A DNA stretch of 64,000 nucleotides from Escherichia coli. GTDB taxonomy: Bacteria; Pseudomonadota; Gammaproteobacteria; Enterobacterales; Enterobacteriaceae. The DNA lies in NCBI RefSeq assembly GCF_044324875.1, contig NZ_CP172185.1. One strand, 5' to 3'. The position numbers and the translations under genes were made by a program. Shown here in pieces: positions 3,131 to 54,042 of the stretch. The notes under the pieces are model-generated. The model was not told the origin of the DNA. It did no database searches and saw only the letters and a program-made list of their open reading frames with translations. Each line of letters starts with the position of its first letter. Within the stretch, counting starts at the first letter, position 1.

Positions 3131-3177
3131 GCGCCGGATAAGATGCGTTATGCGTCAAATCCGGCGTAATAAAATGC
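3131..3177. repeat. REP-like palindromic element between convergent speB and loiP
   Basis: gccggataagatgcg...atccggcg inverted repeat typical of REP units. Confidence 0.3.
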
Positions 3178-16741: not shown

Positions 16742-16758
16742 GCTAAAAGAAAAATTGC

Positions 16759-30832: not shown

Positions 30833-30853
30833 TTCCCCTTCTCTGAAAATCAA

Positions 30854-30883
30854 CGGGCAGGTCACTGACTTGCCCGTTTTTTT
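30854..30883 (+). terminator. serA intrinsic terminator
   Basis: cgggcag...ctgcccg hairpin followed by a T7 tract. Confidence 0.75.
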
Positions 30884-30989
30884 ATCGCTTCTCCACACCG
30901 TTGCCGCGTTGTGCATTCGGCTTTGCGAGTCTGCTCCAGAAAATAAATCAAAGTCAGATCAATGCGTTGTGTTTATTTAATGGGGATTT

Positions 30990-31140
30990 ACGATGGCAGG
31001 GCAGCATGGTGCTGTAACGGTAAAGCCCTCACCGAAGCGAGGGCTTGAAGGAGAAGGGTTATGATGCGACTTGTCATCATACTGATTGTACTGTTACTCA
31101 TAAGTTTCCCAGCTTATTAACAGTCAGTCTCAGGGGAGGA
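30990..31140 (-). ncRNA. sibC: SibC antisense sRNA (antitoxin of ibsC); boundaries approximate
   Basis: Expected from the position between serA and ygfA and the presence of the ibsC ORF on the opposite strand; ends not determined from sequence. Confidence 0.4.
31061..31120 (+). CDS. ibsC: Type I toxin IbsC (19-aa hydrophobic peptide)
   Basis: ATGATGCGACTTGTCATC... encodes MMRLVIILIVLLLISFPAY; followed by a gggaggaGTCATcctccc hairpin. Confidence 0.8.
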   Translation: MMRLVIILIVLLLISFPAY

Positions 31141-31220
31141 GTCATCCTCCCTTACCCTTACTCACTAAATTAGGTTAAAGAATCAACGATGTCAATCAGG
31201 GCGATGCAGGTGTGTCGCCC

Positions 31221-31769
31221 TTACCACTCCCAGACTTTCGACGGTGTAACCACCGCAGGAAGTGGGATATCCCACTCTTCAACGGGGAGTTTTTCCACCA
31301 ACTGACAATCATGCGCATAACCCACCGGTTGCATTTGATAGCGCTGCCAGTTTTGTAAGGTCCGATCATAAAAACCACCGCCCATTCCCAGGCGCTGACC
31401 GTACTCATCAAAGGCGACCAGCGGTGTGATCAACACGTCTAATCGGGAAAGGGGTAGCACGTCACGCACATCCAGTTTTGGCTCATGGATCTTCAACCTG
31501 TTCATCACCAGTTCGCTTTGCGGATGGTAATTCAGGAACAGCAAATTACCGGCACTAAAGGGATGCAAAACTGGAAGATATACGCGCTTACCGGCGCGCC
31601 AGAGTTGTTCTATGAGTGGCTGGGTGTCGAGTTCGCCATCAAAAGAGAGGAATACAGCGACCGTATGTGCCATCACCACTGGGGGATAAGTCATCATCCG
31701 GGTAGCAGCTTGTTGACCCATTTCCTGCTGTTGTTCCGGCGTTAACGCACGACGACGTTGCCGAATCAT
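31221..31769 (-). CDS. fau: 5-formyltetrahydrofolate cyclo-ligase
   Basis: 182 aa from MIRQRRRALTPEQQQEMGQQAATRMMTYPP; the longer ORF in the track runs into ssrS. Confidence 0.9.
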   Translation of the reverse strand: MIRQRRRALTPEQQQEMGQQAATRMMTYPPVVMAHTVAVFLSFDGELDTQPLIEQLWRAGKRVYLPVLHPFSAGNLLFLNYHPQSELVMNRLKIHEPKLDVRDVLPLSRLDVLITPLVAFDEYGQRLGMGGGFYDRTLQNWQRYQMQPVGYAHDCQLVEKLPVEEWDIPLPAVVTPSKVWEW

Positions 31770-31843
31770 TTTGCGGATTTCTTGTCGGGATAATGTCAGT
31801 GGGAGTTCTGGTAGTTGCGTCATGGCTGGTGCCAGATAAGAAG

Positions 31844-32027
31844 GGAATCTCCGAGATGCCGCCGCAGGCTGTAACCCTTGAACCCTTGGTTCAAGGTGAA
31901 TGTGTCGTCGCAGTTTTAAGGCTTCTCGGACGGACCGAGCATGCTCACCAACCGCGGAGCGCCACATTCTTGTGGTATGAAATATCGGCTCAGGGGACTG
32001 GCCCGCTTGCGAACATCTCAGAGAAAT
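31844..32027 (-). ncRNA. ssrS: 6S RNA
   Basis: Reverse complement matches 6S RNA (5'-ATTTCTCTGAGATGTTCGCAAGCGGGCCAGTCCCCTGAGCC...GGAGATTCC-3'); immediately upstream of fau as in the ssrS-ygfA operon. Confidence 0.9.
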
Positions 32028-32068
32028 TTTGTCTTCACGGTTACTCTACCACAGTAAACCGAAAAGTG

Positions 32069-32464
<396 letters not shown>

Positions 32465-32565
32465 CTATAGCTACCCTGATGAGAAGAGACAAGCCCTTTT
32501 CTGGTCCACCAGGGCCCAAAGTGGTAGCATATCATGAATATTCCTCCCTTTGACGACGAATGCTT

Positions 32566-33144
32566 ATGTCTATACAGAACGAAATGCCTGGTTACAACGA
32601 AATGAACCAGTATCTGAACCAACAAGGGACGGGTCTGACCCCAGCTGAGATGCATGGTTTAATCAGCGGGATGATATGTGGCGGTAACGATGACAGCTCA
32701 TGGCTGCCGCTACTTCACGACCTGACGAACGAAGGCATGGCTTTCGGTCATGAGCTGGCACAGGCACTGCGTAAAATGCACTCTGCCACCAGCGATGCCC
32801 TGCAGGATGACGGTTTCCTTTTTCAGCTTTATCTGCCTGATGGCGATGATGTCAGCGTTTTTGATCGGGCTGATGCGCTGGCAGGTTGGGTTAATCACTT
32901 CCTGCTTGGTCTTGGCGTTACGCAACCGAAGCTGGACAAAGTGACCGGCGAAACCGGTGAAGCCATCGACGATCTGCGTAACATCGCGCAGCTGGGCTAC
33001 GACGAAGACGAAGATCAGGAAGAGCTTGAAATGTCGCTTGAAGAGATCATCGAATACGTTCGTGTTGCCGCGCTGTTATGCCACGACACTTTTACTCATC
33101 CGCAACCGACCGCGCCAGAAGTACAAAAACCGACTCTACACTAA
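32566..33144 (+). CDS. ygfB: UPF0149 family protein YgfB
   Basis: 192 aa from [20 protein letters not shown]. Confidence 0.9.
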
Positions 33145-33169
33145 AAACAAAAAACGTAAGGAGAGTGTT

Positions 33170-34495
33170 ATGAGTGAGATATCCCGGCAAGAGTTTCAGC
33201 GTCGCCGTCAGGCCCTGGTGGAGCAAATGCAACCCGGCAGCGCCGCGCTGATTTTTGCAGCACCAGAAGTAACACGTAGCGCCGACAGCGAATACCCCTA
33301 TCGTCAGAACAGTGACTTCTGGTACTTCACCGGCTTTAACGAACCGGAAGCGGTGCTGGTGCTGATTAAAAGTGATGACACTCATAACCACAGCGTTCTG
33401 TTTAACCGCGTGCGCGACCTGACGGCAGAGATCTGGTTTGGCCGCCGCTTAGGTCAGGATGCCGCGCCAGAGAAACTGGGCGTTGACCGCGCACTGGCAT
33501 TCAGTGAAATCAATCAGCAACTTTATCAACTGCTTAACGGTCTGGATGTGGTTTACCATGCCCAGGGCGAATATGCGTATGCTGATGAAATCGTGAACAG
33601 TGCGCTGGAAAAACTGCGTAAAGGCTCGCGACAGAATCTCACCGCCCCGGCAACGATGATCGACTGGCGTCCCATGGTACATGAAATGCGCCTGTTCAAA
33701 TCCCCAGAAGAGATTGCCGTACTTCGCCGCGCGGGGGAAATCACCGCCCTGGCGCATACCCGGGCGATGGAAAAATGCCGTCCGGGAATGTTCGAGTACC
33801 ATCTGGAAGGCGAAATTCACCACGAATTTAACCGCCACGGTGCTCGCTATCCGTCCTATAACACCATTGTCGGCAGCGGTGAAAACGGCTGTATTCTGCA
33901 CTACACCGAAAACGAGAGTGAACTGCGCGACGGTGACCTGGTGTTGATTGACGCGGGTTGTGAATACAAAGGTTACGCGGGCGATATTACCCGCACCTTC
34001 CCGGTCAACGGCAAATTCACCCAGGCCCAGCGTGAAATCTACGACATTGTGCTGGAGTCTCTTGAAACCAGCCTGCGCCTGTATCGTCCGGGAACCTCCA
34101 TTCTGGAAGTCACTGGTGAAGTGGTGCGCATCATGGTTAGCGGCCTGGTAAAACTCGGCATCCTGAAAGGTGATGTTGATGAACTGATCGCTCAGAACGC
34201 CCATCGTCCTTTCTTTATGCATGGCCTTAGCCACTGGTTAGGGCTGGATGTCCATGACGTTGGCGTTTATGGTCAGGATCGCTCGCGCATTCTGGAACCG
34301 GGCATGGTACTGACCGTAGAGCCAGGTCTGTATATCGCGCCGGATGCAGATGTGCCAGAACAATATCGCGGTATCGGCATTCGTATTGAAGACGACATCG
34401 TGATTACCGAAACCGGCAACGAAAACCTCACCGCCAGCGTGGTGAAAAAGCCGGAAGAAATCGAAGCGTTGATGGCAGCTGCGAGAAAGCAATGA
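33170..34495 (+). CDS. pepP: Xaa-Pro aminopeptidase (aminopeptidase P II)
   Basis: 441 aa starting MSEISRQEFQRRRQALVEQMQPGS; M24 peptidase motifs. Confidence 0.95.
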   Translation: MSEISRQEFQRRRQALVEQMQPGSAALIFAAPEVTRSADSEYPYRQNSDFWYFTGFNEPEAVLVLIKSDDTHNHSVLFNRVRDLTAEIWFGRRLGQDAAPEKLGVDRALAFSEINQQLYQLLNGLDVVYHAQGEYAYADEIVNSALEKLRKGSRQNLTAPATMIDWRPMVHEMRLFKSPEEIAVLRRAGEITALAHTRAMEKCRPGMFEYHLEGEIHHEFNRHGARYPSYNTIVGSGENGCILHYTENESELRDGDLVLIDAGCEYKGYAGDITRTFPVNGKFTQAQREIYDIVLESLETSLRLYRPGTSILEVTGEVVRIMVSGLVKLGILKGDVDELIAQNAHRPFFMHGLSHWLGLDVHDVGVYGQDRSRILEPGMVLTVEPGLYIAPDADVPEQYRGIGIRIEDDIVITETGNENLTASVVKKPEEIEALMAAARKQ

Positions 34496-35670
34496 GCGTA
34501 ATCATCGTCGGTGGCGGCATGGCGGGCGCGACGCTGGCGCTGGCTATTTCCCGGTTAAGTCACGGGGCGCTGCCGGTACATTTGATTGAAGCGACAGCGC
34601 CAGAGTCACATGCTCATCCGGGCTTTGATGGACGAGCTATTGCGCTGGCGGCGGGCACTTGTCAGCAACTGGCGCGCATCGGCGTCTGGCAATCTTTGGC
34701 TGATTGCGCAACCGCCATCACTACCGTGCATGTCAGCGATCGTGGTCATGCCGGATTCGTCACTCTCACCGCAGAAGATTACCAACTGGCGGCGCTGGGG
34801 CAGGTTGTCGAATTGCATAATGTCGGGCAACGGCTGTTTGCATTGCTGCGCAAAGCACCTGGCGTAACGCTGCATTGTCCTGATCGCGTGGCTAACGTTG
34901 CCCGTACTCAGAGTCACGTTGAAGTGACGCTGGAGAGTGGCGAGACGCTGACGGGCTGCGTGCTGGTAGCCGCTGATGGCACCCATTCAGCGTTAGCCAC
35001 TGCGTGCGGCGTTGACTGGCAGCAGGAGCCTTACGAACAACTGGCAGTGATTGCCAACGTTGCGACTTCCGTTGCGCATGAAGGGCGCGCTTTTGAACGC
35101 TTTACGCAACATGGCCCGCTGGCGATGTTGCCGATGTCTGACGGACGCTGTTCGCTGGTCTGGTGTCATCCACTGGAACGGCGCGAAGAGGTGCTGTCGT
35201 GGAGCGACGAGACGTTTTGCCGTGAACTCCAGTCGGCCTTTGGTTGGCGACTTGGGAAAATTACCCACGCTGGTAAACGCAGTGCTTACCCGCTGGCGTT
35301 AACCCGCGCCGCCAGACCTGTTACCCATCGTACCGTGCTGGTGGGCAATGCGGCGCAAACTCTGCACCCGATTGCCGGGCAAGGGTTCAACCTCGGTATG
35401 CGAGATGTCATGAGCCTTGCGGAAACCCTGACTCAGGCGCAGGAGCGCGGAGAAGACATGGGTGATTACGGCGTATTGTGCCGTTATCAGCAGCGTCGAC
35501 AGAGCGATCGCGAAGCAACCATCGGCGTCACGGACAGCCTTGTACATCTTTTTGCCAACCGTTGGGGGCCGCTGGTTGTCGGGCGCAACATCGGGCTGAT
35601 GGCAATGGAATTATTCACCCCGGCACGCGATGTGCTGGCGCAGCGCACCCTCGGTTGGGTGGCGCGTTGA
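34492..35670 (+). CDS. ubiH: 2-octaprenyl-6-methoxyphenol hydroxylase
   Basis: 392 aa; FAD-binding GGGMAG motif; ATGA overlap with pepP. Confidence 0.95.
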   Translation: MSVIIVGGGMAGATLALAISRLSHGALPVHLIEATAPESHAHPGFDGRAIALAAGTCQQLARIGVWQSLADCATAITTVHVSDRGHAGFVTLTAEDYQLAALGQVVELHNVGQRLFALLRKAPGVTLHCPDRVANVARTQSHVEVTLESGETLTGCVLVAADGTHSALATACGVDWQQEPYEQLAVIANVATSVAHEGRAFERFTQHGPLAMLPMSDGRCSLVWCHPLERREEVLSWSDETFCRELQSAFGWRLGKITHAGKRSAYPLALTRAARPVTHRTVLVGNAAQTLHPIAGQGFNLGMRDVMSLAETLTQAQERGEDMGDYGVLCRYQQRRQSDREATIGVTDSLVHLFANRWGPLVVGRNIGLMAMELFTPARDVLAQRTLGWVAR

Positions 35671-35692
35671 AGGCGGTTTTAAGGAATAAACA

Positions 35693-36895
35693 ATGCAAAG
35701 TGTTGATGTAGCCATTGTTGGCGGCGGCATGGTGGGGCTGGCGGTTGCCTGCGGCTTGCAGGGTAGTGGCTTACGCGTTGCCGTACTGGAGCAGCGCGTA
35801 CCGGAACCTCTGGCGGCGGATGCACCACCACAACTGCGCGTTTCGGCTATCAATGCCGCCAGCGAAAAATTACTCACCCGTCTTGGCGTCTGGCAGGACA
35901 TTCTCTCTCGTAGGGCCAGCTGTTATCACGGTATGGAAGTGTGGGACAAAGACAGCTTTGGTCACATTTCGTTTGACGATCAAAGCATGGGCTATAGCCA
36001 TCTTGGGCATATCGTTGAAAATTCAGTGATTCACTACGCGCTGTGGAACAAAGCGCATCAGTCGTCAGATATCACTCTGTTAGCCCCCGCAGAATTACAG
36101 CAGGTCGCCTGGGGAGAAAATGAAACCTTCCTGACGCTGAAAGACGGCAGTATGTTAACGGCGCGTCTGGTGATTGGCGCGGACGGCGCTAATTCCTGGT
36201 TGCGCAACAAAGCCGATATTCCGCTGACCTTCTGGGATTATCAGCATCACGCGCTGGTGGCGACCATTCGCACTGAAGAACCGCATGATGCGGTGGCGCG
36301 GCAGGTTTTCCATGGCGAAGGCATTCTGGCCTTTTTACCGCTTAGCGATCCGCATCTTTGCTCGATTGTCTGGTCACTGTCGCCAGAGGAAGCGCAGCGG
36401 ATGCAGCAGGCAGGGGAAGACGAATTTAATCGCGCGTTAAATATCGCTTTTGATAATCGCCTGGGCTTATGCAAGGTTGAGAGCGAGCGTCAGGTGTTCC
36501 CGCTGACGGGGCGTTATGCCCGCCAGTTTGCCGCACACCGTCTGGCGTTGGTGGGCGACGCCGCGCATACTATTCACCCGCTCGCGGGGCAGGGCGTTAA
36601 TCTCGGCTTTATGGATGCCGCAGAGCTGATTGCCGAACTGAAACGGTTGCATCGTCAGGGTAAAGACATCGGGCAGTACATTTACCTGCGTCGCTATGAG
36701 CGTAGCCGTAAGCACAGTGCGGCGCTGATGCTGGCTGGTATGCAGGGATTTCGCGATCTGTTTTCCGGTACCAATCCGGCGAAAAAACTGCTGCGTGATA
36801 TTGGTCTGAAACTGGCCGACACGCTTCCTGGCGTTAAACCACAACTTATCCGCCAGGCAATGGGATTAAACGATTTGCCTGAATGGCTGCGTTAA
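35693..36895 (+). CDS. ubiI: 2-octaprenylphenol hydroxylase (VisC)
   Basis: 400 aa; FAD-dependent monooxygenase, paralog of UbiH. Confidence 0.93.
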   Translation: MQSVDVAIVGGGMVGLAVACGLQGSGLRVAVLEQRVPEPLAADAPPQLRVSAINAASEKLLTRLGVWQDILSRRASCYHGMEVWDKDSFGHISFDDQSMGYSHLGHIVENSVIHYALWNKAHQSSDITLLAPAELQQVAWGENETFLTLKDGSMLTARLVIGADGANSWLRNKADIPLTFWDYQHHALVATIRTEEPHDAVARQVFHGEGILAFLPLSDPHLCSIVWSLSPEEAQRMQQAGEDEFNRALNIAFDNRLGLCKVESERQVFPLTGRYARQFAAHRLALVGDAAHTIHPLAGQGVNLGFMDAAELIAELKRLHRQGKDIGQYIYLRRYERSRKHSAALMLAGMQGFRDLFSGTNPAKKLLRDIGLKLADTLPGVKPQLIRQAMGLNDLPEWLR

Positions 36896-36989
36896 AAATT
36901 TCTCCTCTGTTGTTTATTTGATACCCATCACACTTTCATCTCCCGGTTTTTTCGCCGGGAGATTTTCCTCATTTGAAATAAACTAATTT

Positions 36990-37342
36990 CACCTCCGTTT
37001 TCGCATTATATTTTCTAATGTCACGAATTTTTGATTTAGTGTTTTTTGACATTTTTTCAGTTCTTAATATTGAATTAATCAAATTAACTTTCTCATTACA
37101 TCATCTTTGTATAGAAACTGGTAAGTTTTTTGGTTTTTTATTCTGTTGCGCTTTTTGCGTTTTTTAACCATAAGCTAATGTGATGATCAATTTTACCTTA
37201 TGGTTAACAGTCTGTTTCGGTGGTAAGTTCAGGCAAAAGAGAACGATTGCGTTGGGGACCGGGAGTGGCTCCGATGCTGGGTTTCGTGGTGATAATTTCG
37301 CCATGGAAAAGTTGTCAGCCCCGCTTATTCAATGAGGACAAG
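36990..37342 (+). promoter_or_regulatory. gcvTHP promoter/control region
   Basis: About 350 bp of AT-rich sequence upstream of gcvT; the known gcv control region carries GcvA, Lrp, CRP and PurR sites, but individual sites were not mapped here. Confidence 0.45.
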
Positions 37343-38437
37343 ATGGCACAACAGACTCCTTTGTACGAACAACACACGCTTTGCGGCGCTCGCATGGTGG
37401 ATTTCCACGGCTGGATGATGCCGCTGCATTACGGTTCGCAAATAGACGAACATCATGCGGTACGTACCGATGCCGGAATGTTTGATGTGTCACATATGAC
37501 CATCGTCGATCTTCGCGGCAGCCGCACCCGGGAGTTTCTGCGTTATCTGCTGGCGAACGATGTGGCGAAACTCACCAAAAGCGGCAAAGCCCTTTACTCG
37601 GGGATGTTGAATGCCTCTGGCGGTGTGATAGATGACCTCATCGTCTACTACTTTACTGAAGATTTCTTCCGCCTCGTTGTTAACTCCGCCACCCGCGAAA
37701 AAGACCTCTCCTGGATTACCCAACACGCTGAACCTTTCGGCATCGAAATTACCGTTCGTGATGACCTTTCCATGATCGCCGTACAAGGGCCGAATGCGCA
37801 GGCAAAAGCTGCCACACTGTTTAATGACGCCCAGCGTCAGGCAGTGGAAGGGATGAAACCGTTCTTTGGCGTGCAGGCGGGCGATCTGTTTATTGCCACC
37901 ACTGGTTATACCGGTGAAGCGGGCTACGAAATTGCGCTGCCCAATGAAAAAGCGGCCGATTTCTGGCGCGAGCTGGTGGAAGCGGGCGTTAAGCCATGCG
38001 GTCTGGGCGCGCGTGACACGCTGCGTCTGGAAGCGGGCATGAATTTGTATAGTCAGGAGATGGACGAAACCATCTCTCCGTTAGCCGCCAACATGGGCTG
38101 GACCATCGCATGGGAACCGGCTGATCGTGACTTTATCGGTCGTGAAGCTCTGGAAGCGCAGCGTGAACATGGCACAGAAAAACTGGTTGGTCTGGTGATG
38201 ACCGAAAAAGGCGTGCTGCGTAATGAACTGCCGGTACGTTTTACTGATGCGCAGGGCAACCAGCATGAAGGCATTATCACCAGCGGGACTTTCTCCCCGA
38301 CGCTGGGTTACAGCATTGCGCTGGCGCGCGTGCCGGAAGGTATTGGTGAAACAGCGATTGTGCAAATTCGCAACCGTGAAATGCCGGTTAAAGTGACGAA
38401 ACCTGTTTTTGTGCGTAACGGTAAAGCCGTCGCGTGA
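37343..38437 (+). CDS. gcvT: Glycine cleavage system T protein (aminomethyltransferase)
   Basis: 364 aa from [33 protein letters not shown]. Confidence 0.97.
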
Positions 38438-38460
38438 TTTACTTTTTTGGAGATTGATTG

Positions 38461-38850
38461 ATGAGCAACGTACCAGCAGAACTGAAATACAGCAAAGAAC
38501 ACGAATGGCTGCGTAAAGAAGCCGACGGCACTTACACCGTTGGTATAACCGAACATGCCCAGGAGCTGTTAGGCGATATGGTGTTTGTTGACCTGCCGGA
38601 AGTGGGCGCAACGGTTAGCGCGGGCGATGACTGCGCGGTTGCCGAATCAGTAAAAGCGGCGTCAGACATTTATGCGCCAGTAAGCGGTGAAATCGTGGCG
38701 GTAAACGACGCACTGAGCGATTCCCCGGAACTGGTGAACAGCGAACCGTATGCAGGCGGCTGGATCTTTAAAATCAAAGCCAGCGATGAAAGCGAACTGG
38801 AATCACTGCTGGATGCGACCTCATACGAAGCATTGTTAGAAGACGAGTAA
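38461..38850 (+). CDS. gcvH: Glycine cleavage system H protein
   Basis: 129 aa from [20 protein letters not shown]; lipoyl-lysine motif region. Confidence 0.97.
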
Positions 38851-38968
38851 CGGCTTTATTCCTCTTCTGCGGGAGAGGATCAGGGTGAGGAACTTTTACG
38901 CCTCACCTTCACTCTCTTCGCAAGGAGAGAGGTTCACAATTCACTGCACGTTTCAGGAACCATCGCTC

Positions 38969-41842
38969 ATGACACAGACGTTAAGCCAGCTTGAAAACAG
39001 CGGCGCTTTTATTGAACGCCATATCGGACCGGACGCCGCGCAACAGCAAGAAATGCTGAATGCCGTTGGCGCACAATCGTTAAACGCGCTGATCGGCCAG
39101 ATTGTGCCGAAAGATATTCAGCTTGCGACCCCGCCGCAGGTTGGCGCACCGGCGACCGAATACGCCGCGCTGGCGGAACTCAAGGCTATTGCCAGTCGCA
39201 ATAAACGCTTCACGTCTTACATCGGCATGGGTTACACCGCCGTGCAGCTACCGCCGGTTATTCTGCGTAACATGCTGGAAAATCCGGGCTGGTATACCGC
39301 GTATACTCCGTATCAACCTGAAGTCTCCCAGGGCCGCCTTGAAGCACTGCTCAACTTCCAGCAGGTAACGCTGGATTTGACCGGTCTGGATATGGCATCG
39401 GCTTCTCTTCTTGACGAAGCCACCGCTGCCGCCGAAGCAATGGCGATGGCTAAACGCGTCAGCAAACTGAAAAATGCCAACCGCTTCTTCGTTGCTTCTG
39501 ACGTCCATCCGCAAACGTTGGATGTGGTACGTACTCGTGCCGAAACCTTTGGTTTTGAAGTGATTGTCGATGACGCGCAAAAAGTGCTCGACCATCAGGA
39601 CGTCTTCGGCGTGCTGTTACAGCAGGTTGGCACAACCGGTGAAATCCACGACTACACTGCGCTCATCAGCGAACTGAAATCACGCAAAATTGTGGTCAGC
39701 GTCGCCGCCGATATTATGGCGCTGGTGCTGTTAACTGCGCCGGGTAAACAGGGCGCGGATATTGTTTTTGGTTCGGCGCAACGCTTTGGCGTACCGATGG
39801 GTTACGGTGGCCCACACGCGGCATTCTTTGCGGCGAAAGATGAATACAAACGCTCAATGCCGGGCCGTATTATCGGTGTATCGAAAGATGCAGCTGGCAA
39901 TACCGCTCTGCGCATGGCGATGCAGACTCGCGAGCAACATATTCGCCGTGAGAAAGCGAACTCCAACATTTGTACTTCCCAGGTACTGCTGGCAAACATC
40001 GCCAGCCTGTATGCCGTTTATCACGGCCCGGTGGGCCTGAAACGTATCGCTAACCGCATCCACCGTCTGACCGATATCCTGGCGGCGGGCCTGCAACAAA
40101 AAGGTCTGAAACTGCGCCATGCGCACTATTTCGACACCTTGTGTGTGGAAGTGGCCGACAAAGCGGGCGTACTGACGCGTGCCGAAGCGGCTGAAATCAA
40201 CCTGCGTAGCGATATCCTGAACGCGGTTGGGATCACCCTTGATGAAACCACCACGCGTGAAAACGTGATGCAGCTTTTCAGCGTGCTGCTGGGCGATAAC
40301 CACGGGCTGGAGATCGACACGCTGGACAAAGACGTGGCTCACGACAGCCGCTCTATTCAGCCTGCGATGCTGCGCGACGACGAAATCCTCACCCATCCGG
40401 TGTTTAATCGCTACCACAGCGAAACCGAAATGATGCGCTATATGCACTCGCTGGAGCGTAAAGATCTGGCGCTGAATCAGGCGATGATCCCGCTGGGTTC
40501 CTGCACCATGAAACTAAACGCCGCCGCCGAGATGATCCCAATCACCTGGCCGGAATTTGCCGAACTGCACCCGTTCTGCCCGCCGGAGCAGGCCGAAGGT
40601 TATCAGCAGATGATCGCGCAGCTGGCTGACTGGCTGGTGAAACTGACCGGTTACGACGCCGTTTGTATGCAGCCGAACTCTGGCGCACAGGGCGAATACG
40701 CGGGCCTGCTGGCGATTCGTCATTATCATGAAAGCCGCAACGAAGGGCATCGCGATATCTGCCTGATCCCGGCATCTGCCCACGGCACTAACCCCGCTTC
40801 CGCGCATATGGCGGGGATGCAGGTGGTGGTTGTGGCGTGTGATAAAAACGGCAATATCGATTTGACTGATCTGCGCGCGAAAGCGGAGCAGGCGGGCGAT
40901 AACCTCTCCTGCATCATGGTGACCTATCCTTCCACTCACGGCGTGTATGAAGAAACGATCCGTGAGGTTTGTGAAGTCGTGCATCAGTTCGGTGGTCAGG
41001 TTTACCTTGATGGCGCGAACATGAACGCTCAGGTTGGCATCACCTCGCCGGGCTTTATTGGTGCGGACGTCTCGCACCTCAACCTGCATAAAACTTTCTG
41101 CATTCCGCACGGCGGTGGTGGTCCGGGTATGGGACCGATCGGCGTGAAAGCGCATCTGGCACCGTTTGTGCCAGGTCATAGCGTGGTACAAATAGAAGGC
41201 ATGTTAACCCGTCAGGGCGCGGTTTCTGCGGCACCGTTCGGTAGCGCATCCATTCTGCCAATCAGCTGGATGTACATCCGCATGATGGGCGCAGAAGGGC
41301 TGAAAAAAGCAAGCCAGGTGGCAATCCTCAACGCCAACTATATTGCCAGCCGCCTGCAGGATGCCTTCCCGGTGCTGTATACCGGTCGCGACGGTCGCGT
41401 GGCGCACGAATGTATTCTCGATATTCGCCCGCTGAAAGAAGAAACCGGCATCAGCGAACTGGATATTGCCAAGCGTCTGATCGACTACGGTTTCCACGCG
41501 CCGACCATGTCGTTCCCGGTGGCGGGTACGCTGATGGTTGAACCGACTGAATCTGAAAGCAAAGTGGAACTGGATCGCTTTATCGACGCGATGCTGGCTA
41601 TCCGCGCAGAAATCGACCAGGTTAAAGCCGGTGTCTGGCCGCTGGAAGATAACCCGCTGGTGAACGCGCCGCACATTCAGAGCGAACTGGTCGCCGAGTG
41701 GGCGCATCCGTACAGCCGTGAAGTTGCGGTATTCCCGGCAGGCGTGGCAGACAAATACTGGCCGACAGTGAAACGTCTGGATGATGTTTACGGCGACCGT
41801 AACCTGTTCTGCTCCTGCGTACCGATTAGCGAATACCAGTAA
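38969..41842 (+). CDS. gcvP: Glycine dehydrogenase (decarboxylating), P protein
   Basis: 957 aa from [22 protein letters not shown]. Confidence 0.97.
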
Positions 41843-41864
41843 TTCACTGATTCGACTATCTTCT

Positions 41865-41888
41865 AAAGGCGCTTCGGCGCCTTTTTAG
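41865..41888 (+). terminator. gcvP intrinsic terminator
   Basis: aaaggcgcTTCGgcgccttttt hairpin with a T tract. Confidence 0.75.
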
Positions 41889-41959
41889 CTTGTTAATAAA
41901 GTGCGCTTTGTGTGTTTCGACTGAGGCGTAATATAAAATATTGCGAGCTCAATATATTA

Positions 41960-41998
41960 AAAGAGTGCCAGGCCTGATGAGCGTAGCGCATCAGGCAC
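41960..41998. repeat. REP element
   Basis: gccaggcctgatgagcgtagcgcatcaggc palindromic unit. Confidence 0.7.
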
Positions 41999-42007
41999 AT
42001 CGGCTAA

Positions 42008-43468
<1,461 letters not shown>

Positions 43469-43485
43469 TTACAGGAAATAGTACC

Positions 43486-43797
43486 ATGCAGCCAAACGAC
43501 ATCACTTTTTTTCAACGTTTCCAGGATGACATTCTGGCTGGGCGTAAAACCATCACCATCCGCGACGAGTCTGAATCGCACTTCAAAACGGGTGATGTGC
43601 TTCGTGTCGGGCGTTTTGAAGATGACGGTTATTTTTGCACGATTGAAGTCACCGCAACCTCAACCGTAACGCTGGATACACTGACGGAAAAACATGCAGA
43701 GCAGGAAAATATGACCTTGACTGAACTGAAAAAGGTCATTGCCGACATCTATCCCGGTCAGACACAGTTTTATGTGATTGAATTTAAATGTCTTTAA
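43486..43797 (+). CDS. yqfB: ASCH-domain protein YqfB
   Basis: 103 aa starting [30 protein letters not shown]. Confidence 0.9.
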
Positions 43798-43957
43798 ATT
43801 GAACTCACACCTGTTAGTTGAAATTTTGCATTTAATTTCATGATTTTTCGGAGATTAGTCCCAAATCAGAATTTATTTTAGCTAACAGGTGTTCACTGGA
43901 ACTATTCTCAGTTACGCTGGAGAGGTTTACACGTGCGTGTACGTTTCTCCGGAGTAA

Positions 43958-44620
<663 letters not shown>

Positions 44621-44624
44621 TGGG

Positions 44625-44800
44625 TGTGCATTAGTAGGCCTGATAAGACGCGTCAGCGTCGCATCAGGCATCGGATCGCAACTGCCGGATGCGGCGTGAA
44701 CGCCTTATCCGGCCTACGGGCCGCGTCCTTGGTGTGATAAAGGCACCAAATCCCAGGCATGATAAGACGCGTCAACGTCGCATCAGGCAATAGTCGCCGG
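44625..44800. repeat. BIME cluster (three to four REP units)
   Basis: Repeated gcctgataagacgcgtca(g/a)cgtcgcatcaggc and gccggatgcggcgtgaacgccttatccggcctac units. Confidence 0.85.
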
Positions 44801-44814
44801 AGCGATACAGAGAT

Positions 44815-45795
44815 TTATTCTTCCAGCGAATACGGCAGCGGCTCGATATGCAATGTATTCGCATCGTCACGCACGCGGAAGATGCTGTCCAGTTCCATAT
44901 CGTTATTCATGACGACCTGTACCACGACCTGACCATCTTCCAGTTTTACCGCAGCCAGCACCGTACCGGTACGACGCCAGTTCTCGCCCATTTTCAGCTC
45001 TAAGTCTTCACCAGCTTCCGGCAGTCGGCTGGCACTACCTGTCAGCAACCAGAGCGCGCGTTTGTTGGCACCACGGAATTTAGCTCGCGCCACCATCTCT
45101 TGTCCGGTATAGCAGCCTTTTTTAAAGCTAATGCCGCCCAGCGCCTGGAGGTTGGTCGCCTGTGGGATAAACTGCCCGCTGTTGGCGGCATCAATCACCG
45201 GGAAACCCGCTTCAATGTTTAATGCCAGCCACTGTTGGCTATTGTTCAGTTCCGCTTCACCGCGCAGTTTATCGGTCAGCATATTGGCAGTGGCTTCATC
45301 GGTTACGATCAGGAAACGTTCTGCAGGGTGTTCAAACCATAGCAAAGTGGTCGCGCCTTCTTTAACTACCTGTTTTTCTTTCGAAGGCAGTTCACTAAAG
45401 ATATTTGCCAGCGCGGCGCGCGCCTGAAAACCGGCAACACCAAGCAGCACACGCTCGTCGTCTGGCGCGATGGTCACTTTAGAGAATACCGCATATTTTT
45501 TCAGTTCAGTCAGCTGCGATTCACGCACGCTGCGCCGTTCAATCCATGCAAAGCCATCGCCGTCGCGGAACAGACGTAAATTGCTCCACATTTTACCTTT
45601 GGCGTCGCAATGGGCGGCGAGCAGGTGCTGATCTTCTGTCATCTGGCTGACATCTGCTGTCACCTGACCCTGCATATATTTTTCGCTGTCCGCGCCAGTA
45701 ATGGTGGCAAGCGCCCAGTCATCAAGCGTTATCAGCGTCAGCGGTAAACGGGCAGACGCCGTAGGCTGACGGGGAGGAAAAGGTGTAAAAGCCAT
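44815..45795 (-). CDS. ygfZ: tRNA-modifying folate-binding protein YgfZ
   Basis: 326 aa starting [29 protein letters not shown]. Confidence 0.93.
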
Positions 45796-46025
45796 AATAG
45801 AGTCCTGAGTTGCTTAACGGCGTATTAATCACTAATGGTAAAAGAGCTATGAGGCAATGCAAGTGCTTTCACTACGCGATCTGTGCCTTCTGCGAGGCGA
45901 CTTCCAAAAAAATGAAGCCCTTGAATTGTTGTGAATTAATTTCGCGATCGCGATGGTGTTTACTGATATTCCCGTAAAAGAAGTCGAAAAACACGTTACA
46001 ATAGCGGGGTACTGGATTTTCGTGA

Positions 46026-46692
<667 letters not shown>

Positions 46693-46731
46693 AGATGACG
46701 GCAAAGCATATGCGCTAAGCCGTCAGTGACA

Positions 46732-47253
46732 TCAGGCGTAATGCTCTGCCATTTCGTTGAGGATTTGTTCACACCAGCTCTGAATACGCTCGTCGCTAAG
46801 GTCATACTGGTTAGTTTCGTCCAGCGCCAGCCCCACGAACAGTTGCCCGTCAGCAATCACCGGTTTCGGGCTGGTAAATTCATACCCTTCCGTTGGCCAG
46901 TAGCCGACGAACTTCACGCCTTTGGTCGAGAGTTTGTCATGCAGCATACCGAGCGCATCGAGGAACCACTCGCCGTATCCCAGTTGATCGCCAAGCCCAT
47001 ACAGCGCAACAATTTTACCTTCAAGGTTCAGGTCGTCGAGCTGATCCCAGACGGCTTCCCAGTCTTCCTGGATTTCACCAAAATCCCAGGTCGGGATACC
47101 CAGAATGAGCACATCGTACTGCTCCATTAATTTCGGGGAGTCGTCCTTGAGGTTATGTAAGGTCACCAGTTCTGGGCCGATAATATCGCGGATTTTTTCT
47201 GCCGCCATTTCGGTGTAACAGGTGCTGGAACCGTAAAAAAGACCCATATTCAT
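46732..47253 (-). CDS. fldB: Flavodoxin 2
   Basis: 173 aa starting [23 protein letters not shown]. Confidence 0.95.
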
Positions 47254-47364
47254 AACGTAAGCTTCTCGATTCTGCTGTGGCTTTTGCGGCTAGTGTATCA
47301 GAATCGCTTTAGTCACGGCACAATAAGGCATAATGGATCAAATGAGTGACCATAAGGGGCGCAA

Positions 47365-48261
47365 GTGAAACAGGATCTGGCACGCATCGAGCAGTTTCTT
47401 GATGCTCTGTGGCTGGAAAAAAATCTGGCTGAAAATACGTTGAACGCATACCGTCGCGATCTGTCAATGATGGTGGAGTGGTTGCATCACCGCGGGTTGA
47501 CGCTGGCGACGGCGCAAAGTGACGATTTGCAGGCATTACTGGCAGAAAGGCTGGAGGGCGGGTATAAAGCCACCAGCTCAGCGCGTTTGCTGAGTGCAGT
47601 GCGCCGATTGTTCCAGTATCTTTATCGCGAAAAGTTTCGTGAAGACGATCCCAGTGCGCATCTCGCTTCACCGAAATTGCCCCAGCGTTTGCCAAAAGAT
47701 TTAAGCGAAGCGCAGGTCGAACGTTTATTGCAGGCACCATTAATTGATCAGCCACTGGAGCTACGCGATAAAGCCATGCTTGAAGTGTTGTATGCTACAG
47801 GGCTGCGTGTCTCTGAACTGGTCGGGCTGACAATGAGTGATATCAGCCTGCGTCAGGGCGTAGTGCGGGTCATTGGTAAAGGCAACAAAGAGCGCCTGGT
47901 ACCGTTAGGTGAAGAGGCGGTTTACTGGCTGGAAACGTATCTCGAGCATGGGCGACCGTGGTTGTTGAACGGTGTCTCTATTGATGTGTTGTTCCCCAGC
48001 CAGCGTGCGCAGCAGATGACGCGACAGACCTTCTGGCACCGCATTAAACATTATGCCGTGCTGGCGGGTATCGACAGCGAAAAGCTGTCACCGCATGTGT
48101 TGCGTCACGCTTTTGCCACTCATTTATTAAATCATGGTGCGGATTTACGCGTGGTGCAGATGCTACTGGGCCACAGCGATCTCTCCACCACGCAAATTTA
48201 TACGCATGTCGCTACCGAGCGTCTGCGGCAACTTCATCAACAGCATCACCCGCGGGCGTGA
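47365..48261 (+). CDS. xerD: Tyrosine recombinase XerD
   Basis: 298 aa; GTG start; catalytic R..HxxR..Y signature (LRHAFATHLL ... IYTHV). Confidence 0.95.
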   Translation: MKQDLARIEQFLDALWLEKNLAENTLNAYRRDLSMMVEWLHHRGLTLATAQSDDLQALLAERLEGGYKATSSARLLSAVRRLFQYLYREKFREDDPSAHLASPKLPQRLPKDLSEAQVERLLQAPLIDQPLELRDKAMLEVLYATGLRVSELVGLTMSDISLRQGVVRVIGKGNKERLVPLGEEAVYWLETYLEHGRPWLLNGVSIDVLFPSQRAQQMTRQTFWHRIKHYAVLAGIDSEKLSPHVLRHAFATHLLNHGADLRVVQMLLGHSDLSTTQIYTHVATERLRQLHQQHHPRA

Positions 48262-48285
48262 TGTCTGAAAAGAACGGGAAGATTT

Positions 48286-48996
48286 ATGAAGAAAGGTTTT
48301 ATGTTGTTTACTTTGTTAGCGGCGTTTTCAGGCTTTGCTCAGGCTGATGACGCGGCAATTCAACAAACGTTAGCCAAAATGGGCATCAAAAGCAGCGATA
48401 TTCAGCCTGCGCCCGTAGCGGGCATGAAGACAGTTCTGACTAACAGCGGTGTGTTGTACATCACCGATGATGGTAAACATATCATTCAGGGGCCAATGTA
48501 TGACGTTAGTGGCACGGCTCCGGTCAATGTCACCAATAAGATGCTGTTAAAGCAGTTGAATGCGCTTGAAAAAGAGATGATCGTTTATAAAGCGCCGCAG
48601 GAAAAACACGTCATCACCGTGTTTACTGATATTACCTGTGGTTACTGCCACAAACTGCATGAGCAAATGGCAGACTATAACGCGCTGGGGATCACCGTGC
48701 GTTATCTTGCTTTCCCGCGCCAGGGGCTGGATAGCGATGCAGAGAAAGAAATGAAAGCTATCTGGTGTGCGAAAGATAAAAACAAAGCGTTTGATGATGT
48801 GATGGCCGGTAAAAGCGTCGCACCAGCCAGCTGCGACGTGGATATTGCCGACCATTACGCACTTGGCGTCCAGCTTGGCGTTAGCGGTACTCCGGCAATT
48901 GTGCTGAGCAATGGCACACTTGTTCCGGGTTACCAGCCGCCGAAAGAGATGAAAGAATTCCTCGACGAACACCAAAAAATGACTAGCGGTAAATAA
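48286..48996 (+). CDS. dsbC: Thiol:disulfide interchange protein DsbC
   Basis: 236 aa with signal peptide; CGYC active site. Confidence 0.95.
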   Translation: MKKGFMLFTLLAAFSGFAQADDAAIQQTLAKMGIKSSDIQPAPVAGMKTVLTNSGVLYITDDGKHIIQGPMYDVSGTAPVNVTNKMLLKQLNALEKEMIVYKAPQEKHVITVFTDITCGYCHKLHEQMADYNALGITVRYLAFPRQGLDSDAEKEMKAIWCAKDKNKAFDDVMAGKSVAPASCDVDIADHYALGVQLGVSGTPAIVLSNGTLVPGYQPPKEMKEFLDEHQKMTSGK

Positions 48997-49001
48997 TTCG
49001 C

Positions 49002-50735
49002 GTGAAACAACAGATACAACTTCGTCGCCGTGAAGTCGATGAAACGGCAGACTTGCCCGCTGAATTGCCTCCCTTGCTGCGCCGTTTATACGCCAGCCGG
49101 GGAGTACGCAGTGCGCAAGAACTGGAACGCAGTGTTAAAGGTATGTTGCCCTGGCAGCAACTGAGCGGCGTCGAAAAGGCCGTTGAGATCCTTTACAACG
49201 CTTTTCGCGAAGGAACGCGGATTATTGTGGTCGGTGATTTCGACGCCGACGGCGCGACCAGCACGGCTCTAAGCGTGCTGGCGATGCGCTCGCTTGGTTG
49301 CAGCAATATCGACTACCTGGTACCAAACCGTTTCGAAGACGGTTACGGCTTAAGCCCGGAAGTGGTCGATCAGGCTCATGCCCGTGGCGCGCAGTTAATT
49401 GTCACGGTGGATAACGGTATTTCCTCCCATGCGGGGGTTGAACACGCTCGTTCGTTGGGCATTCCGGTTATTGTTACCGATCACCATTTGCCAGGCGACA
49501 CATTACCCGCAGCGGAAGCGATCATTAACCCTAACTTGCGCGACTGTAATTTCCCGTCGAAATCACTGGCAGGCGTGGGTGTGGCGTTTTATCTGATGCT
49601 GGCGCTGCGCACCTTTTTGCGCGATCAGGGCTGGTTTGATGAGCGCGGCATCGCAATTCCTAATCTGGCAGAACTGCTGGATCTGGTCGCGCTGGGGACA
49701 GTAGCGGACGTCGTGCCGCTGGACGCTAATAATCGCATTCTGACCTGGCAGGGGATGAGTCGCATCCGTGCCGGAAAGTGCCGTCCGGGGATTAAAGCGC
49801 TGCTGGAAGTGGCCAATCGCGATCCACAAAAACTCGCCGCCAGCGATTTAGGTTTTGCGCTGGGGCCACGTCTCAATGCTGCCGGGCGACTGGACGATAT
49901 GTCCGTTGGCGTGGCGCTGTTGCTGTGCGACAACATCGGCGAAGCGCGCGTGCTGGCAAATGAACTCGATGCGCTAAACCAGACGCGAAAAGAGATCGAA
50001 CAGGGAATGCAAGTTGAAGCCCTGACCTTGTGCGAGAAACTGGAGCGCAGCCGCGACACGCTACCCGGCGGGCTGGCAATGTATCACCCCGAATGGCATC
50101 AGGGCGTTGTCGGTATTCTGGCTTCGCGCATCAAAGAGCGTTTTCATCGTCCGGTTATCGCCTTTGCGCCAGCAGGTGATGGTACGCTGAAAGGTTCCGG
50201 TCGCTCCATTCAGGGGCTGCATATGCGTGATGCGCTGGAGCGATTAGACACACTCTACCCCGGCATGATGCTCAAGTTTGGCGGTCATGCGATGGCGGCG
50301 GGTTTGTCGCTGGAAGAGGATAAATTCGAACTCTTTCAACAACGGTTTGGCGAACTGGTTACTGAGTGGCTGGACCCTTCGCTATTGCAAGGCGAAGTGG
50401 TGTCGGACGGTCCGTTAAGTCCGGCCGAAATGACCATGGAAGTGGCGCAGCTGTTGCGCGATGCTGGCCCGTGGGGGCAGATGTTCCCGGAGCCGCTGTT
50501 TGACGGTCATTTCCGTCTGCTGCAACAGCGACTGGTGGGCGAACGTCATTTGAAGGTGATGGTCGAGCCGGTCGGCGGCGGTCCGCTGCTGGATGGTATT
50601 GCTTTTAATGTCGATACCGCCCTCTGGCCGGATAACGGCGTGCGCGAAGTGCAACTGGCTTACAAGCTCGATATCAACGAGTTTCGCGGCAACCGCAGCC
50701 TGCAAATTATCATCGACAATATCTGGCCAATTTAG
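49002..50735 (+). CDS. recJ: Single-stranded-DNA-specific exonuclease RecJ
   Basis: 577 aa; GTG start; DHH/DHHA1 motifs. Confidence 0.95.
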   Translation: MKQQIQLRRREVDETADLPAELPPLLRRLYASRGVRSAQELERSVKGMLPWQQLSGVEKAVEILYNAFREGTRIIVVGDFDADGATSTALSVLAMRSLGCSNIDYLVPNRFEDGYGLSPEVVDQAHARGAQLIVTVDNGISSHAGVEHARSLGIPVIVTDHHLPGDTLPAAEAIINPNLRDCNFPSKSLAGVGVAFYLMLALRTFLRDQGWFDERGIAIPNLAELLDLVALGTVADVVPLDANNRILTWQGMSRIRAGKCRPGIKALLEVANRDPQKLAASDLGFALGPRLNAAGRLDDMSVGVALLLCDNIGEARVLANELDALNQTRKEIEQGMQVEALTLCEKLERSRDTLPGGLAMYHPEWHQGVVGILASRIKERFHRPVIAFAPAGDGTLKGSGRSIQGLHMRDALERLDTLYPGMMLKFGGHAMAAGLSLEEDKFELFQQRFGELVTEWLDPSLLQGEVVSDGPLSPAEMTMEVAQLLRDAGPWGQMFPEPLFDGHFRLLQQRLVGERHLKVMVEPVGGGPLLDGIAFNVDTALWPDNGVREVQLAYKLDINEFRGNRSLQIIIDNIWPI

Positions 50736-50825
50736 CGTCATCTTCTCTATAAAAAAGAGCGTGGATTGGGTACAATCCCGCTCTTATCACCGCATTTTGA
50801 CTAGCTCAATAAAAGAAATCAGACC

Positions 50826-51924
50826 ATGTTTGAAATTAATCCGGTAAATAATCGCATTCAGGACCTCACGGAACGCTCCGACGTTCTTAGGGGGTATCTT
50901 TGACTATGACGCCAAGAAAGAGCGTCTGGAAGAAGTAAACGCCGAGCTGGAACAGCCGGATGTCTGGAACGAACCTGAACGCGCACAGGCGCTGGGTAAA
51001 GAGCGTTCCTCCCTCGAAGCCGTTGTCGACACCCTTGACCAAATGAAACAGGGGCTGGAAGATGTTTTTGGTCTGCTGGAACTGGCTGTAGAAGCTGACG
51101 ACGAAGAAACCTTTAACGAAGCCGTTGCTGAACTCGACGCTCTGGAAGAAAAACTGGCGCAGCTTGAGTTCCGCCGTATGTTCTCTGGCGAATATGACAG
51201 CGCCGACTGCTACCTCGATATTCAGGCGGGGTCTGGCGGTACGGAAGCACAGGACTGGGCGAGCATGCTTGAGCGTATGTATCTGCGCTGGGCAGAATCG
51301 CGTGGTTTCAAAACTGAAATCATCGAAGAGTCGGAAGGTGAAGTGGCGGGTATTAAATCCGTGACGATCAAAATCTCCGGCGATTACGCTTACGGCTGGC
51401 TGCGTACAGAAACTGGCGTTCACCGCCTGGTGCGTAAGAGCCCGTTTGACTCCGGCGGTCGTCGCCACACGTCGTTCAGCTCCGCGTTTGTTTACCCGGA
51501 AGTTGATGACGATATCGATATCGAAATCAATCCGGCGGATCTGCGCATCGACGTTTATCGCGCGTCCGGCGCGGGCGGTCAGCACGTTAACCGTACCGAA
51601 TCTGCGGTGCGTATTACTCACATCCCAACTGGGATCGTGACCCAGTGCCAGAACGACCGTTCCCAGCACAAGAACAAAGACCAGGCCATGAAGCAGATGA
51701 AAGCGAAGCTTTATGAACTGGAGATGCAGAAGAAAAATGCCGAGAAGCAGGCGATGGAAGATAACAAATCCGACATCGGCTGGGGCAGCCAGATTCGTTC
51801 TTATGTCCTTGATGACTCCCGCATTAAAGATCTGCGTACCGGGGTAGAAACCCGTAACACGCAGGCCGTGCTGGACGGCAGCCTGGATCAATTTATCGAA
51901 GCAAGTTTGAAAGCAGGGTTATGA
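50826..51924 (+). CDS. prfB: Peptide chain release factor 2, requiring a programmed +1 frameshift
   Basis: Frame 0 runs 50826–50900 ([25 protein letters not shown]), then CTT TGA C at 50898–50904; the +1 frame continues 50902–51924 ([12 protein letters not shown]...SPGQ motif...KAGL); AGGGGG Shine-Dalgarno-like element just upstream of the shift site. Confidence 0.95.
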
Positions 51925-51933
51925 GGAACCAAC

Positions 51934-53451
51934 ATGTCTGAACAACACGCACAGGGCGCTGACGCGGTAGTCGATCTTAACAATGAACTGAAAACGCGTC
52001 GTGAGAAGCTGGCGAACCTGCGCGAGCAGGGGATTGCCTTCCCGAACGATTTCCGTCGCGATCATACCTCTGACCAATTGCACGCAGAATTCGACGGTAA
52101 AGAGAACGAAGAACTGGAAGCGCTGAACATCGAAGTCGCCGTTGCTGGCCGCATGATGACCCGCCGTATTATGGGTAAAGCGTCTTTCGTTACCCTGCAG
52201 GATGTGGGTGGCCGCATTCAGCTGTACGTTGCCCGTGACGATCTGCCGGAAGGCGTTTACAACGAGCAGTTCAAAAAATGGGACCTCGGCGACATCCTCG
52301 GCGCGAAAGGTAAACTGTTCAAAACCAAAACCGGCGAACTGTCTATCCACTGCACCGAGCTGCGTCTGCTGACCAAAGCACTGCGTCCGCTGCCGGACAA
52401 ATTCCACGGCTTGCAGGATCAGGAAGCGCGCTATCGTCAGCGTTATCTGGATCTCATCTCTAACGATGAATCCCGCAACACCTTTAAAGTGCGCTCGCAG
52501 ATCCTCTCTGGTATTCGCCAGTTCATGGTGAACCGCGGCTTTATGGAAGTTGAAACGCCGATGATGCAGGTGATCCCAGGCGGTGCCGCTGCGCGTCCGT
52601 TTATCACCCACCATAATGCGCTGGATCTCGACATGTACCTGCGTATCGCGCCGGAACTGTACCTCAAGCGTCTGGTGGTCGGTGGCTTCGAGCGTGTATT
52701 CGAAATCAACCGTAACTTCCGTAACGAAGGTATTTCCGTACGTCATAACCCAGAGTTCACCATGATGGAACTCTATATGGCTTACGCAGATTACAAAGAT
52801 CTTATCGAGCTGACCGAATCGCTGTTCCGTACTCTGGCACAGGATATTCTCGGTAAGACGGAAGTGACCTACGGCGACGTAACGCTGGACTTCGGTAAGC
52901 CGTTCGAAAAACTGACCATGCGTGAAGCGATCAAGAAATATCGCCCGGAAACCGACATGGCAGATCTGGACAACTTCGACTCTGCGAAAGCGATTGCTGA
53001 ATCTATCGGTATCCACGTTGAGAAGAGCTGGGGTCTGGGCCGTATCGTTACCGAGATCTTCGAAGAAGTGGCAGAAGCACATCTGATTCAGCCGACCTTC
53101 ATTACTGAATATCCGGCAGAAGTTTCTCCGCTGGCGCGTCGTAACGACGTTAACCCGGAAATCACTGACCGCTTTGAGTTCTTTATCGGTGGTCGTGAAA
53201 TCGGTAACGGCTTTAGCGAGCTGAATGACGCGGAAGATCAGGCGCAGCGCTTCCTGGATCAGGTTGCCGCGAAAGACGCAGGCGACGACGAAGCGATGTT
53301 CTACGACGAAGATTACGTCACCGCACTGGAACATGGCTTACCGCCGACAGCAGGTCTGGGAATTGGTATCGACCGTATGGTAATGCTGTTCACCAACAGC
53401 CATACCATCCGCGACGTTATTCTGTTCCCGGCGATGCGTCCGGTGAAATAA
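51934..53451 (+). CDS. lysS: Lysine--tRNA ligase (constitutive)
   Basis: 505 aa starting [44 protein letters not shown]. Confidence 0.97.
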
Positions 53452-53471
53452 GCATTACGTTATGCTCACAA

Positions 53472-53495
53472 CCCCGGCAAATGTCGGGGTTTTTT
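53472..53495 (+). terminator. lysS intrinsic terminator (shared with convergent idi)
   Basis: ccccggcaaatgtcgggg hairpin followed by a T6 tract. Confidence 0.7.
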
Positions 53496-54042
53496 AATTG
53501 TGCTGCGCGAAAGCAGACAACAATTTTCTTGCTTCACTATTGGCTGCCTGCATCACCATCCACGGACTGAACGCCCACGGCGTGGCATCAATACCACGTA
53601 ATACATCTGCTAAATCACACCATTGATAATCCATCACTTCATCATCGTTGATCTGTAACGCACTGGTGGTGCGTGCGGCAAATACCGGACACACTTCATT
53701 TTCCACAATGCCATTCGGATCGGTGGCGCGGTAGCGAAAGTCAGGATAGACCGGTTCTGGTGCTGTTATTTCCACACCCAGTTCAAAGCGGCAACGGCGG
53801 ATCACCGCGTCTTCGTTGCTTTCGCCCATTTGTGGGTGCCCACAAACCGAGTTAGTCCACACGCCCGGCCACGCTTTTTTGCTAAGGGCGCGGCGGGTAA
53901 CTAATAATTGCCCTTTGGCATTAAACAGCCAACTGGAGAACGCGAGATGTAAGAGAGTGTCTGCCGTGTGTGCGGCATACTTTTCCAGCGTACCCGTGGG
54001 AACTCCCTGTGCATTCAATAAAATGACGTGTTCCGTTTGCAT
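53494..54042 (-). CDS. idi: Isopentenyl-diphosphate delta-isomerase
   Basis: 182 aa starting [25 protein letters not shown]; Nudix-like fold motifs. Confidence 0.93.

Follow-up and report, generated by a model that had tools for sequence, protein, structure and literature searches.

The 165-bp spacer that separates the convergent genes gcvP and bglA in the Escherichia coli DNA studied here (a stretch of 64 kb, hereafter the window) is very probably a widespread ygfF-negative allele that arose when an ancestral gene was lost by deletion long ago, a reading to which we assign a probability of nearly 0.9. At the level of the species, the presence or absence of ygfF constitutes a major biallelic polymorphism and not a peculiarity of one strain: among the 5,426 complete RefSeq E. 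coli genomes in which the alleles were counted, ygfF is present in 3,053 (56%), while the short allele is detected in 2,347 with a 122-bp probe or in 2,349 with an 83-bp probe (43%). An earlier note on this DNA, which had correctly remarked that ygfF is missing here, therefore overstated the case in regarding the difference as strain-specific. The ygfF-negative short allele can be recognized in the published annotations of thousands of genomes, and the features met at the locus (an accessory gene that is present or absent, REP/BIME repeats and an intrinsic terminator) are all of known kinds.

Comparison of the gcvP-bglA interval with E. coli K-12

The spacer occupies positions 41843-42007 and measures exactly 165 bp between the stop codon of gcvP (TAA, 41840-41842, + strand) and that of bglA (42008-42010, seen as TTA on the + strand because the gene lies on the - strand). 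The genes gcvT, gcvH and gcvP are all located on the + strand of the window, and bglA is followed by yqfB and trhA, as in K-12. The features of the locus are collected in Table 1, where the start of gcvP has been inferred from the annotated length of 2874 bp in close relatives.

Table 1. Features of the gcvP-bglA locus in the window
Feature	Position	Strand	Basis
gcvP, glycine dehydrogenase, last gene of gcvTHP	38969-41842	+	TIGR00461, 1842.8 bits
gcvP intrinsic terminator, hairpin AAAGGCGC-TTCG-GCGCCTTT and T-run	41865-41886	+	folding
Spacer CTTGTTAATAAAGTGCGCTTTGT	41889-41911		alignment of alleles
Interval from which ygfF and its flanks are missing	41889-41998		comparison with the K-12-type allele
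REP-a, eroded half REP	41912-41931		aligns to ATGCCGGATGCGGCGTGAA of the intact BIME of RMDEC465; 3' half gone
BIME L motif with IHF-type core TCAATATATTA	41932-41958		alignment
REP-b, intact REP palindrome, 9 bp from the bglA stop	41967-41998		folding and second copy in the window
bglA, 6-phospho-beta-glucosidase A	42008-43447	-	NF011589, 1150.6 bits

In the genome of K-12 MG1655 (NC_000913.3) the order is bglA (b2901, + strand), ygfF (b2902, - strand) and gcvP (b2903, - strand), in agreement with the earlier note, and the stop codons of the outer genes are 1066 bp apart, made up, in the orientation of the window, of 266 bp, the 744 bp of ygfF and 56 bp. K-12 thus does not possess the short spacer. 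The two loci have in common the flanking genes, their convergent arrangement and the gcvP stop codon with its terminator, but the K-12 gap comprises two G-rich HPGQ palindromes, ygfF and the 56-bp spacer with a hairpin, whereas the gap of the window is devoid of the gene. The sequences are identical through the gcvP stop and the terminator as far as TTTTTAG, where they diverge, and they can be realigned only in the last ~20 bp ahead of the bglA stop, so that ~960 bp of K-12-type sequence, including both palindromes, are replaced in the window by ~110 bp of BIME-derived sequence. The HPGQ (G-rich hairpin/G-quadruplex) repeats between gcvP and ygfF of the K-12 type are those numbered 32 and 33 (PMC5100583); they are found at about 3045902-3046167 of NC_000913.3 and are missing from the window along with ygfF.

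A search for remnants of the gene, such as the earlier note had envisaged, returned none. Local DNA alignments of the 103-bp core of the spacer to K-12, to two divergent E. coli ygfF alleles and to two Citrobacter intervals stayed within the range of shuffled sequences, with the exception of the similarity of REP to REP and of a gapped match of 34 bp to Citrobacter sp. FP75 (25, against a shuffle maximum of 26). At the protein level, tblastn of YgfF against the whole 64-kb window gave no match with E <= 1, a permissive tblastn against the 250-bp slice 41801-42050 yielded only noise, and according to tblastn with K-12 YgfF no protein of the adh_short or adh_short_C2 type is encoded between gcvP and bglA in the window. 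The open reading frames of the spacer are limited to spurious ones of 21-58 aa, each of which coincides in part with the terminator, with the REP or with bglA read on its antisense strand.

Terminator, REP and BIME sequences in the spacer

The terminator reported in the earlier note is readily recognized on folding as an 8-bp stem with a free energy of -12.7 kcal/mol (z = -3.3) followed by further T's, and it is common to all E. coli alleles and to Citrobacter sp. FP75. A consensus scan of positions 41700-42150 for terminators and promoters listed nothing; as the hairpin is clear on folding, this empty result reflects the criteria of the scan, which probably missed the terminator because the maximal stem takes up three of the five T's. 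A search of positions 41600-42250 against Rfam gave no match with E <= 1. The identity to the K-12-type allele stops at the spacer CTTGTTAATAAAGTGCGCTTTGT, which is identical in a rare third allele (represented by SWHEFF_68) and similar in E. albertii.

The composition of the gap could be resolved by alignment with the third allele, with E. albertii, and with the reverse complement of the region upstream of ygfF in strain RMDEC465, in which the BIME is intact. The L motif agrees at 20 of its 27 positions with the BIME of RMDEC465, a score reached by 3 of 500 shuffles, and at 21 of 27 with an independent BIME at ~16.8 kb in the window, a score reached by none of 500. The latter element, which served as the independent reference for the L motif, spans 16757-16811 and consists of a REP (16757-16781) and an L motif (16794-16811, CGAATTCAATATATTGCA on the - strand). 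The core of the L motif in the spacer fits TCAANNNNTTR, which is part of the consensus for IHF, and may be considered a putative IHF site.

REP-b is an extragenic, GC-rich imperfect palindrome within the size range of REP elements (about 25-35 bp), and a further copy of it is present in the window. Its hairpin (41972-41996) has a predicted stability of about -20 kcal/mol on either strand, which was equalled by none of 200 shuffled sequences, and the second copy, the REP at 16757-16781, differs from it by one mismatch, with 0 such matches expected by chance. The GTAG tetranucleotide that heads REP palindromes is a feature recognized by RAYT proteins; in REP-b this conserved head is absent and CCAG stands in its place, the head reading GCCAGGCCTGATG as compared to GTAGGCC(T/G)GAT in RMDEC465 and Citrobacter, a difference that we counted as one substitution.

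The L motif is thus flanked by two REP sequences, as expected of a BIME, but these do not form a pair of complete inverse REPs, since REP-a retains only its first half. Read in this way, the interior of the gap is a degenerate BIME (half REP, L motif and intact REP) and not degraded coding sequence. The earlier note had listed "one REP element" in the interval: REP-b is real, but the interval holds more than that. The element resembles the BIME/RIP-type repeats of enterobacteria in having an L motif flanked by REPs in an extragenic location, here between convergent genes, and departs from them in that one REP is cut to about half and the other is headed by CCAG. The 165-bp spacer is probably only a 3' end region for two convergent transcripts, with the terminator of gcvTHP on one side and the REP hairpin at the 3' end of bglA on the other.

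Alleles of the locus in E. coli

The ygfF-positive genomes include K-12, ATCC 8739, E24377A, O111:H2 and O121:H19, and the short allele is carried by O157:H7 EDL933 and other O157 strains, O7:K1 CE10, Nissle 1917 and clone D i2. All matches to the short allele cover at least 80% of the probe with 80-100% identity. The counts of the two alleles are reciprocal and add up to ~99.5% of the genomes; with the third allele, found in 17-18 genomes, ~99.8% are accounted for. By the phylogroups of the named reference strains, the split presumably runs between A/B1 (with ygfF) and B2/E/F (short).

The short alleles of EDL933, Nissle 1917, CE10 and ~2,340 other genomes have the same architecture and length as that of the window and, in most carriers, are 96.7-100% identical to it; those of 118UI, SW070912 and WP8-S18-ESBL-07 are identical or nearly so across the interval. 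A subtype in ~420 genomes (e.g. the 163-bp spacer of 99-3311) differs in that its core is only ~85% identical to that of the window. The 165-bp and 163-bp subtypes are nonetheless collinear, which is in agreement with a single origin of the short allele.

In the third allele (SWHEFF_68, 2830-4224; here and below, coordinates in genomes other than that of the window refer to the extracted locus) ygfF is replaced by ~1.4 kb of AT-rich DNA with a gene for an outer-membrane protein of the Phenol_MetA_deg family (PF13557, E = 2.3e-13). An open reading frame with a signal peptide, situated upstream of this gene, closes at a stop codon, so that a split pseudogene may be present. Past the gcvP stop, the third allele agrees with the window throughout the first 69 bp and at 74 of the first 77, and the BIME starts alike in both. 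The sequence of the E. albertii type strain (NBRC 107761, 2467-2787) ends with its contig 321 bp after gcvP, and no ygfF is present within this distance; all 321 bp match the upstream part of the third allele, albeit with many mismatches and gaps, and the type strain would thus probably carry the third allele. In both of them the BIME is followed by the string CATCAGT(T/G)TGTTAG, which is also found upstream of ygfF in K-12.

A further arrangement was observed in RMDEC465 (968-1200), where the gcvP terminator occurs twice ahead of a divergent ygfF (93.7% identical to that of K-12). The two copies enclose the intact BIME and the spacer, inverted relative to the window, which looks like the outcome of an inversion, or of an insertion with duplication, between palindromic terminators. 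An apparent allele of 836 bp with a 45-bp tail of ygfF in HH97 (1766-2601) was rejected, as its sequence is ridden with homopolymers; it probably reflects a low-quality long-read assembly and not a real allele.

The slot between gcvP and bglA is therefore seen to hold ygfF, the Phenol_MetA_deg gene or no gene, in addition to HPGQ elements or an inverted BIME between duplicated terminators. It is tempting to regard it as a replaceable slot bounded by REP/BIME sequences, in which the repeats recurrently drive deletion, inversion and exchange of the cargo, and of which some alleles would be old enough to be shared with E. albertii. We consider this generalization speculative and on balance unlikely; if true, the locus would show on a small scale how repeats drive the turnover of genes in nature at a junction of the core genome.

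ygfF as the probable ancestral occupant of the locus

Related loci were collected with the C-terminus of GcvP from one genome per species, and YgfF, BglA and YqfB were then located on them by tblastn. Among the matches listed, the order gcvP-ygfF-bglA, together with yqfB, occurs in Citrobacter werkmanii, Citrobacter sp. FP75 and Enterobacteriaceae RIT691, in all of which ygfF lies 64-82 bp downstream of gcvP in the same orientation and bglA is convergent. ygfF also comes immediately after gcvP in Enterobacter cloacae, Superficieibacter and Rahnella, and in Yersinia artesiana it lies downstream of gcvP with extra sequence in between. In Citrobacter sp. FP75 a terminator of the same sequence as in E. 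coli is followed at once by the ribosome-binding site of ygfF.

Among themselves, the ygfF alleles of E. coli share 92.6-100% identity, as against only ~74% with those of Citrobacter and Enterobacter, with respect to which they form one group with three deep lineages that are 6-7% apart. For comparison, identity in the flanking genes amounts to 95-99% within E. coli and to 84-87% between E. coli and Citrobacter. A single group with three deep lineages fits a long vertical residence and, judged from these identities, ygfF is very probably an old, vertically inherited and fast-evolving resident of the locus. Its conservation in the same slot across genera, together with the depth of the E. coli lineages, indicates that the gene is ancestral and that the short allele represents a loss.

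Decay of ygfF is also evident outside Escherichia. In Enterobacter sp. Bisph1 (6747-7040) the gene has suffered an internal deletion that fuses its first ~14 codons to the C-terminal part, and in Mangrovibacter yixingensis (6747-6920) it is reduced to its first ~8 codons before bglA. Such independent decay indicates that ygfF can be dispensed with.

Origin of the short allele

The opposite polarity, i.e. that the short allele is the ancestral state of Escherichia and that lineages of the A/B1 type regained ygfF when homologous recombination brought it in from a different lineage of Escherichia or from another enterobacterium, would agree with the occurrence of the short allele in Nissle 1917, CE10 and O157, which belong to groups commonly placed among the early-branching ones. 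It would also agree with the E. albertii type strain, in which the lack of ygfF immediately after gcvP is accompanied by a spacer and REP architecture like that of the short and third alleles. However, the gene occupies the same slot in the same orientation in several enterobacterial genera, the identities given above argue for long residence in E. coli and not for recent import, and the E. albertii sequence resembles the third allele, in which the gene is replaced, and not an empty site. We therefore hold a re-introduction to be very unlikely. E. albertii is the only other Escherichia species among the matches listed, and its type strain suggests that the loss, or the polymorphism, could pre-date E. 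coli. A further explanation, namely that the gap is an artefact of sequencing or assembly caused by a collapsed repeat, might be entertained because REP/BIME repeats can confuse assemblers and the sequence of HH97 is corrupted at this very locus, but it is refuted by the fact that over 2,300 independent complete genomes contain the 165-bp junction contiguously, with identities of up to 100%, and its likelihood is negligible.

Under the preferred reading, that of an old deletion, the enterobacterial ancestor would have had ygfF directly after the gcvP terminator and co-oriented with gcvP; in Citrobacter, ygfF is in addition followed by bglA in convergent orientation, and a REP or a hairpin lies between the two. 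In one lineage of E. coli, a segment that starts just past the terminator and spacer and extends to the REP next to bglA would then have been lost, leaving the terminator, the short spacer and the decayed BIME (half REP, L motif and REP) abutting the bglA stop. The most likely mechanism would be slippage or recombination involving REP-type palindromes in direct orientation on either side of ygfF. It is suggested by the location of REP-b, which is that of the bglA-proximal REP or hairpin after ygfF in the K-12-type, RMDEC465 and GPEC1337 alleles and also that of the REP(s) of Citrobacter, whose GTAG heads have the same orientation, and by the 3' tail of REP-b (GCATCAGGCACATCGGCTAA), which resembles that of GPEC1337 (GCATCCGGCACATCAGATAA). 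A putative precursor with the arrangement terminator, spacer, BIME, CAGTTTGTTAGC, ygfF, REP and bglA would, on collapse of REP onto REP, give exactly the sequence of the window. Such a precursor, with ygfF and a BIME in this orientation, was not found among the 5,426 genomes, which leaves the step without a direct "before" state; the sole ygfF-bearing allele with a related BIME is that of RMDEC465, where the BIME is inverted and upstream of ygfF. A deletion mediated specifically by REPs is therefore proposed tentatively, as quite possible but short of probable. The missing precursor would be compatible with a deletion unrelated to REP or BIME, by illegitimate recombination or by replacement with horizontally transferred flanking DNA, followed by the insertion or expansion of the BIME, and such a course of events would also be consistent with the erosion of REP-a and with the gain and loss of BIMEs and other palindromic repeats at this locus (HPGQ in K-12, the inverted BIME in RMDEC465). 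Against it speaks the agreement of REP-b, in position and tail, with the REP or hairpin that follows ygfF in Citrobacter and in other alleles. The third allele and E. albertii, moreover, have this spacer and the start of this BIME with a gene still to the right, from which it appears that the BIME pre-dates at least one of the rearrangements. We regard a deletion independent of the repeats as possible but less likely than not.

Function of YgfF and significance of its absence

K-12 YgfF contains the SDR domains PF13561 and PF00106. Its loss is not known to produce a phenotype. The protein belongs to the SDR63C type and acts in vitro as an NAD(P)-dependent glucose 1-dehydrogenase, with an activity determined as 305.55 U/mg (PMC10645960) and also described in a further study (PMC12506659). 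Strains with the short allele lack YgfF and with it this in vitro activity. ygfF should be viewed as a dispensable accessory gene, whose absence here places this strain among the ~43% of sequenced E. coli with the short allele; the short allele can serve as a convenient lineage marker, and it reminds us that the gene content of K-12 is not the default of the species. The locus also provides a small example of repeat-rich intergenic DNA that hosts alternative gene contents.

Mosaic structure of the flanking regions

The terminal codons of bglA (42008-42016) vary between alleles, with respect both to the C-terminus of the protein (...GENL in the window, Citrobacter and GPEC1337, ...GEKL in K-12) and to the stop codon (TAA or TGA), and this variation is not correlated with the presence or absence of ygfF. 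It indicates that haplotypes have recombined right at the bglA junction; the flanks are mosaic, and the history of the locus has been blurred by recombination. On a larger scale, positions 30000-54000 of the window are at best 98.3-98.4% identical over 24 kb to any of the 5,426 complete E. coli genomes. The comparison with the best of these is itself a mosaic, with 97.8% identity at 30000-44670 and 99.3% at 44756-54000, and the window has ~118 bp of extra sequence in the trhA-ygfZ spacer, around 44670-44756.
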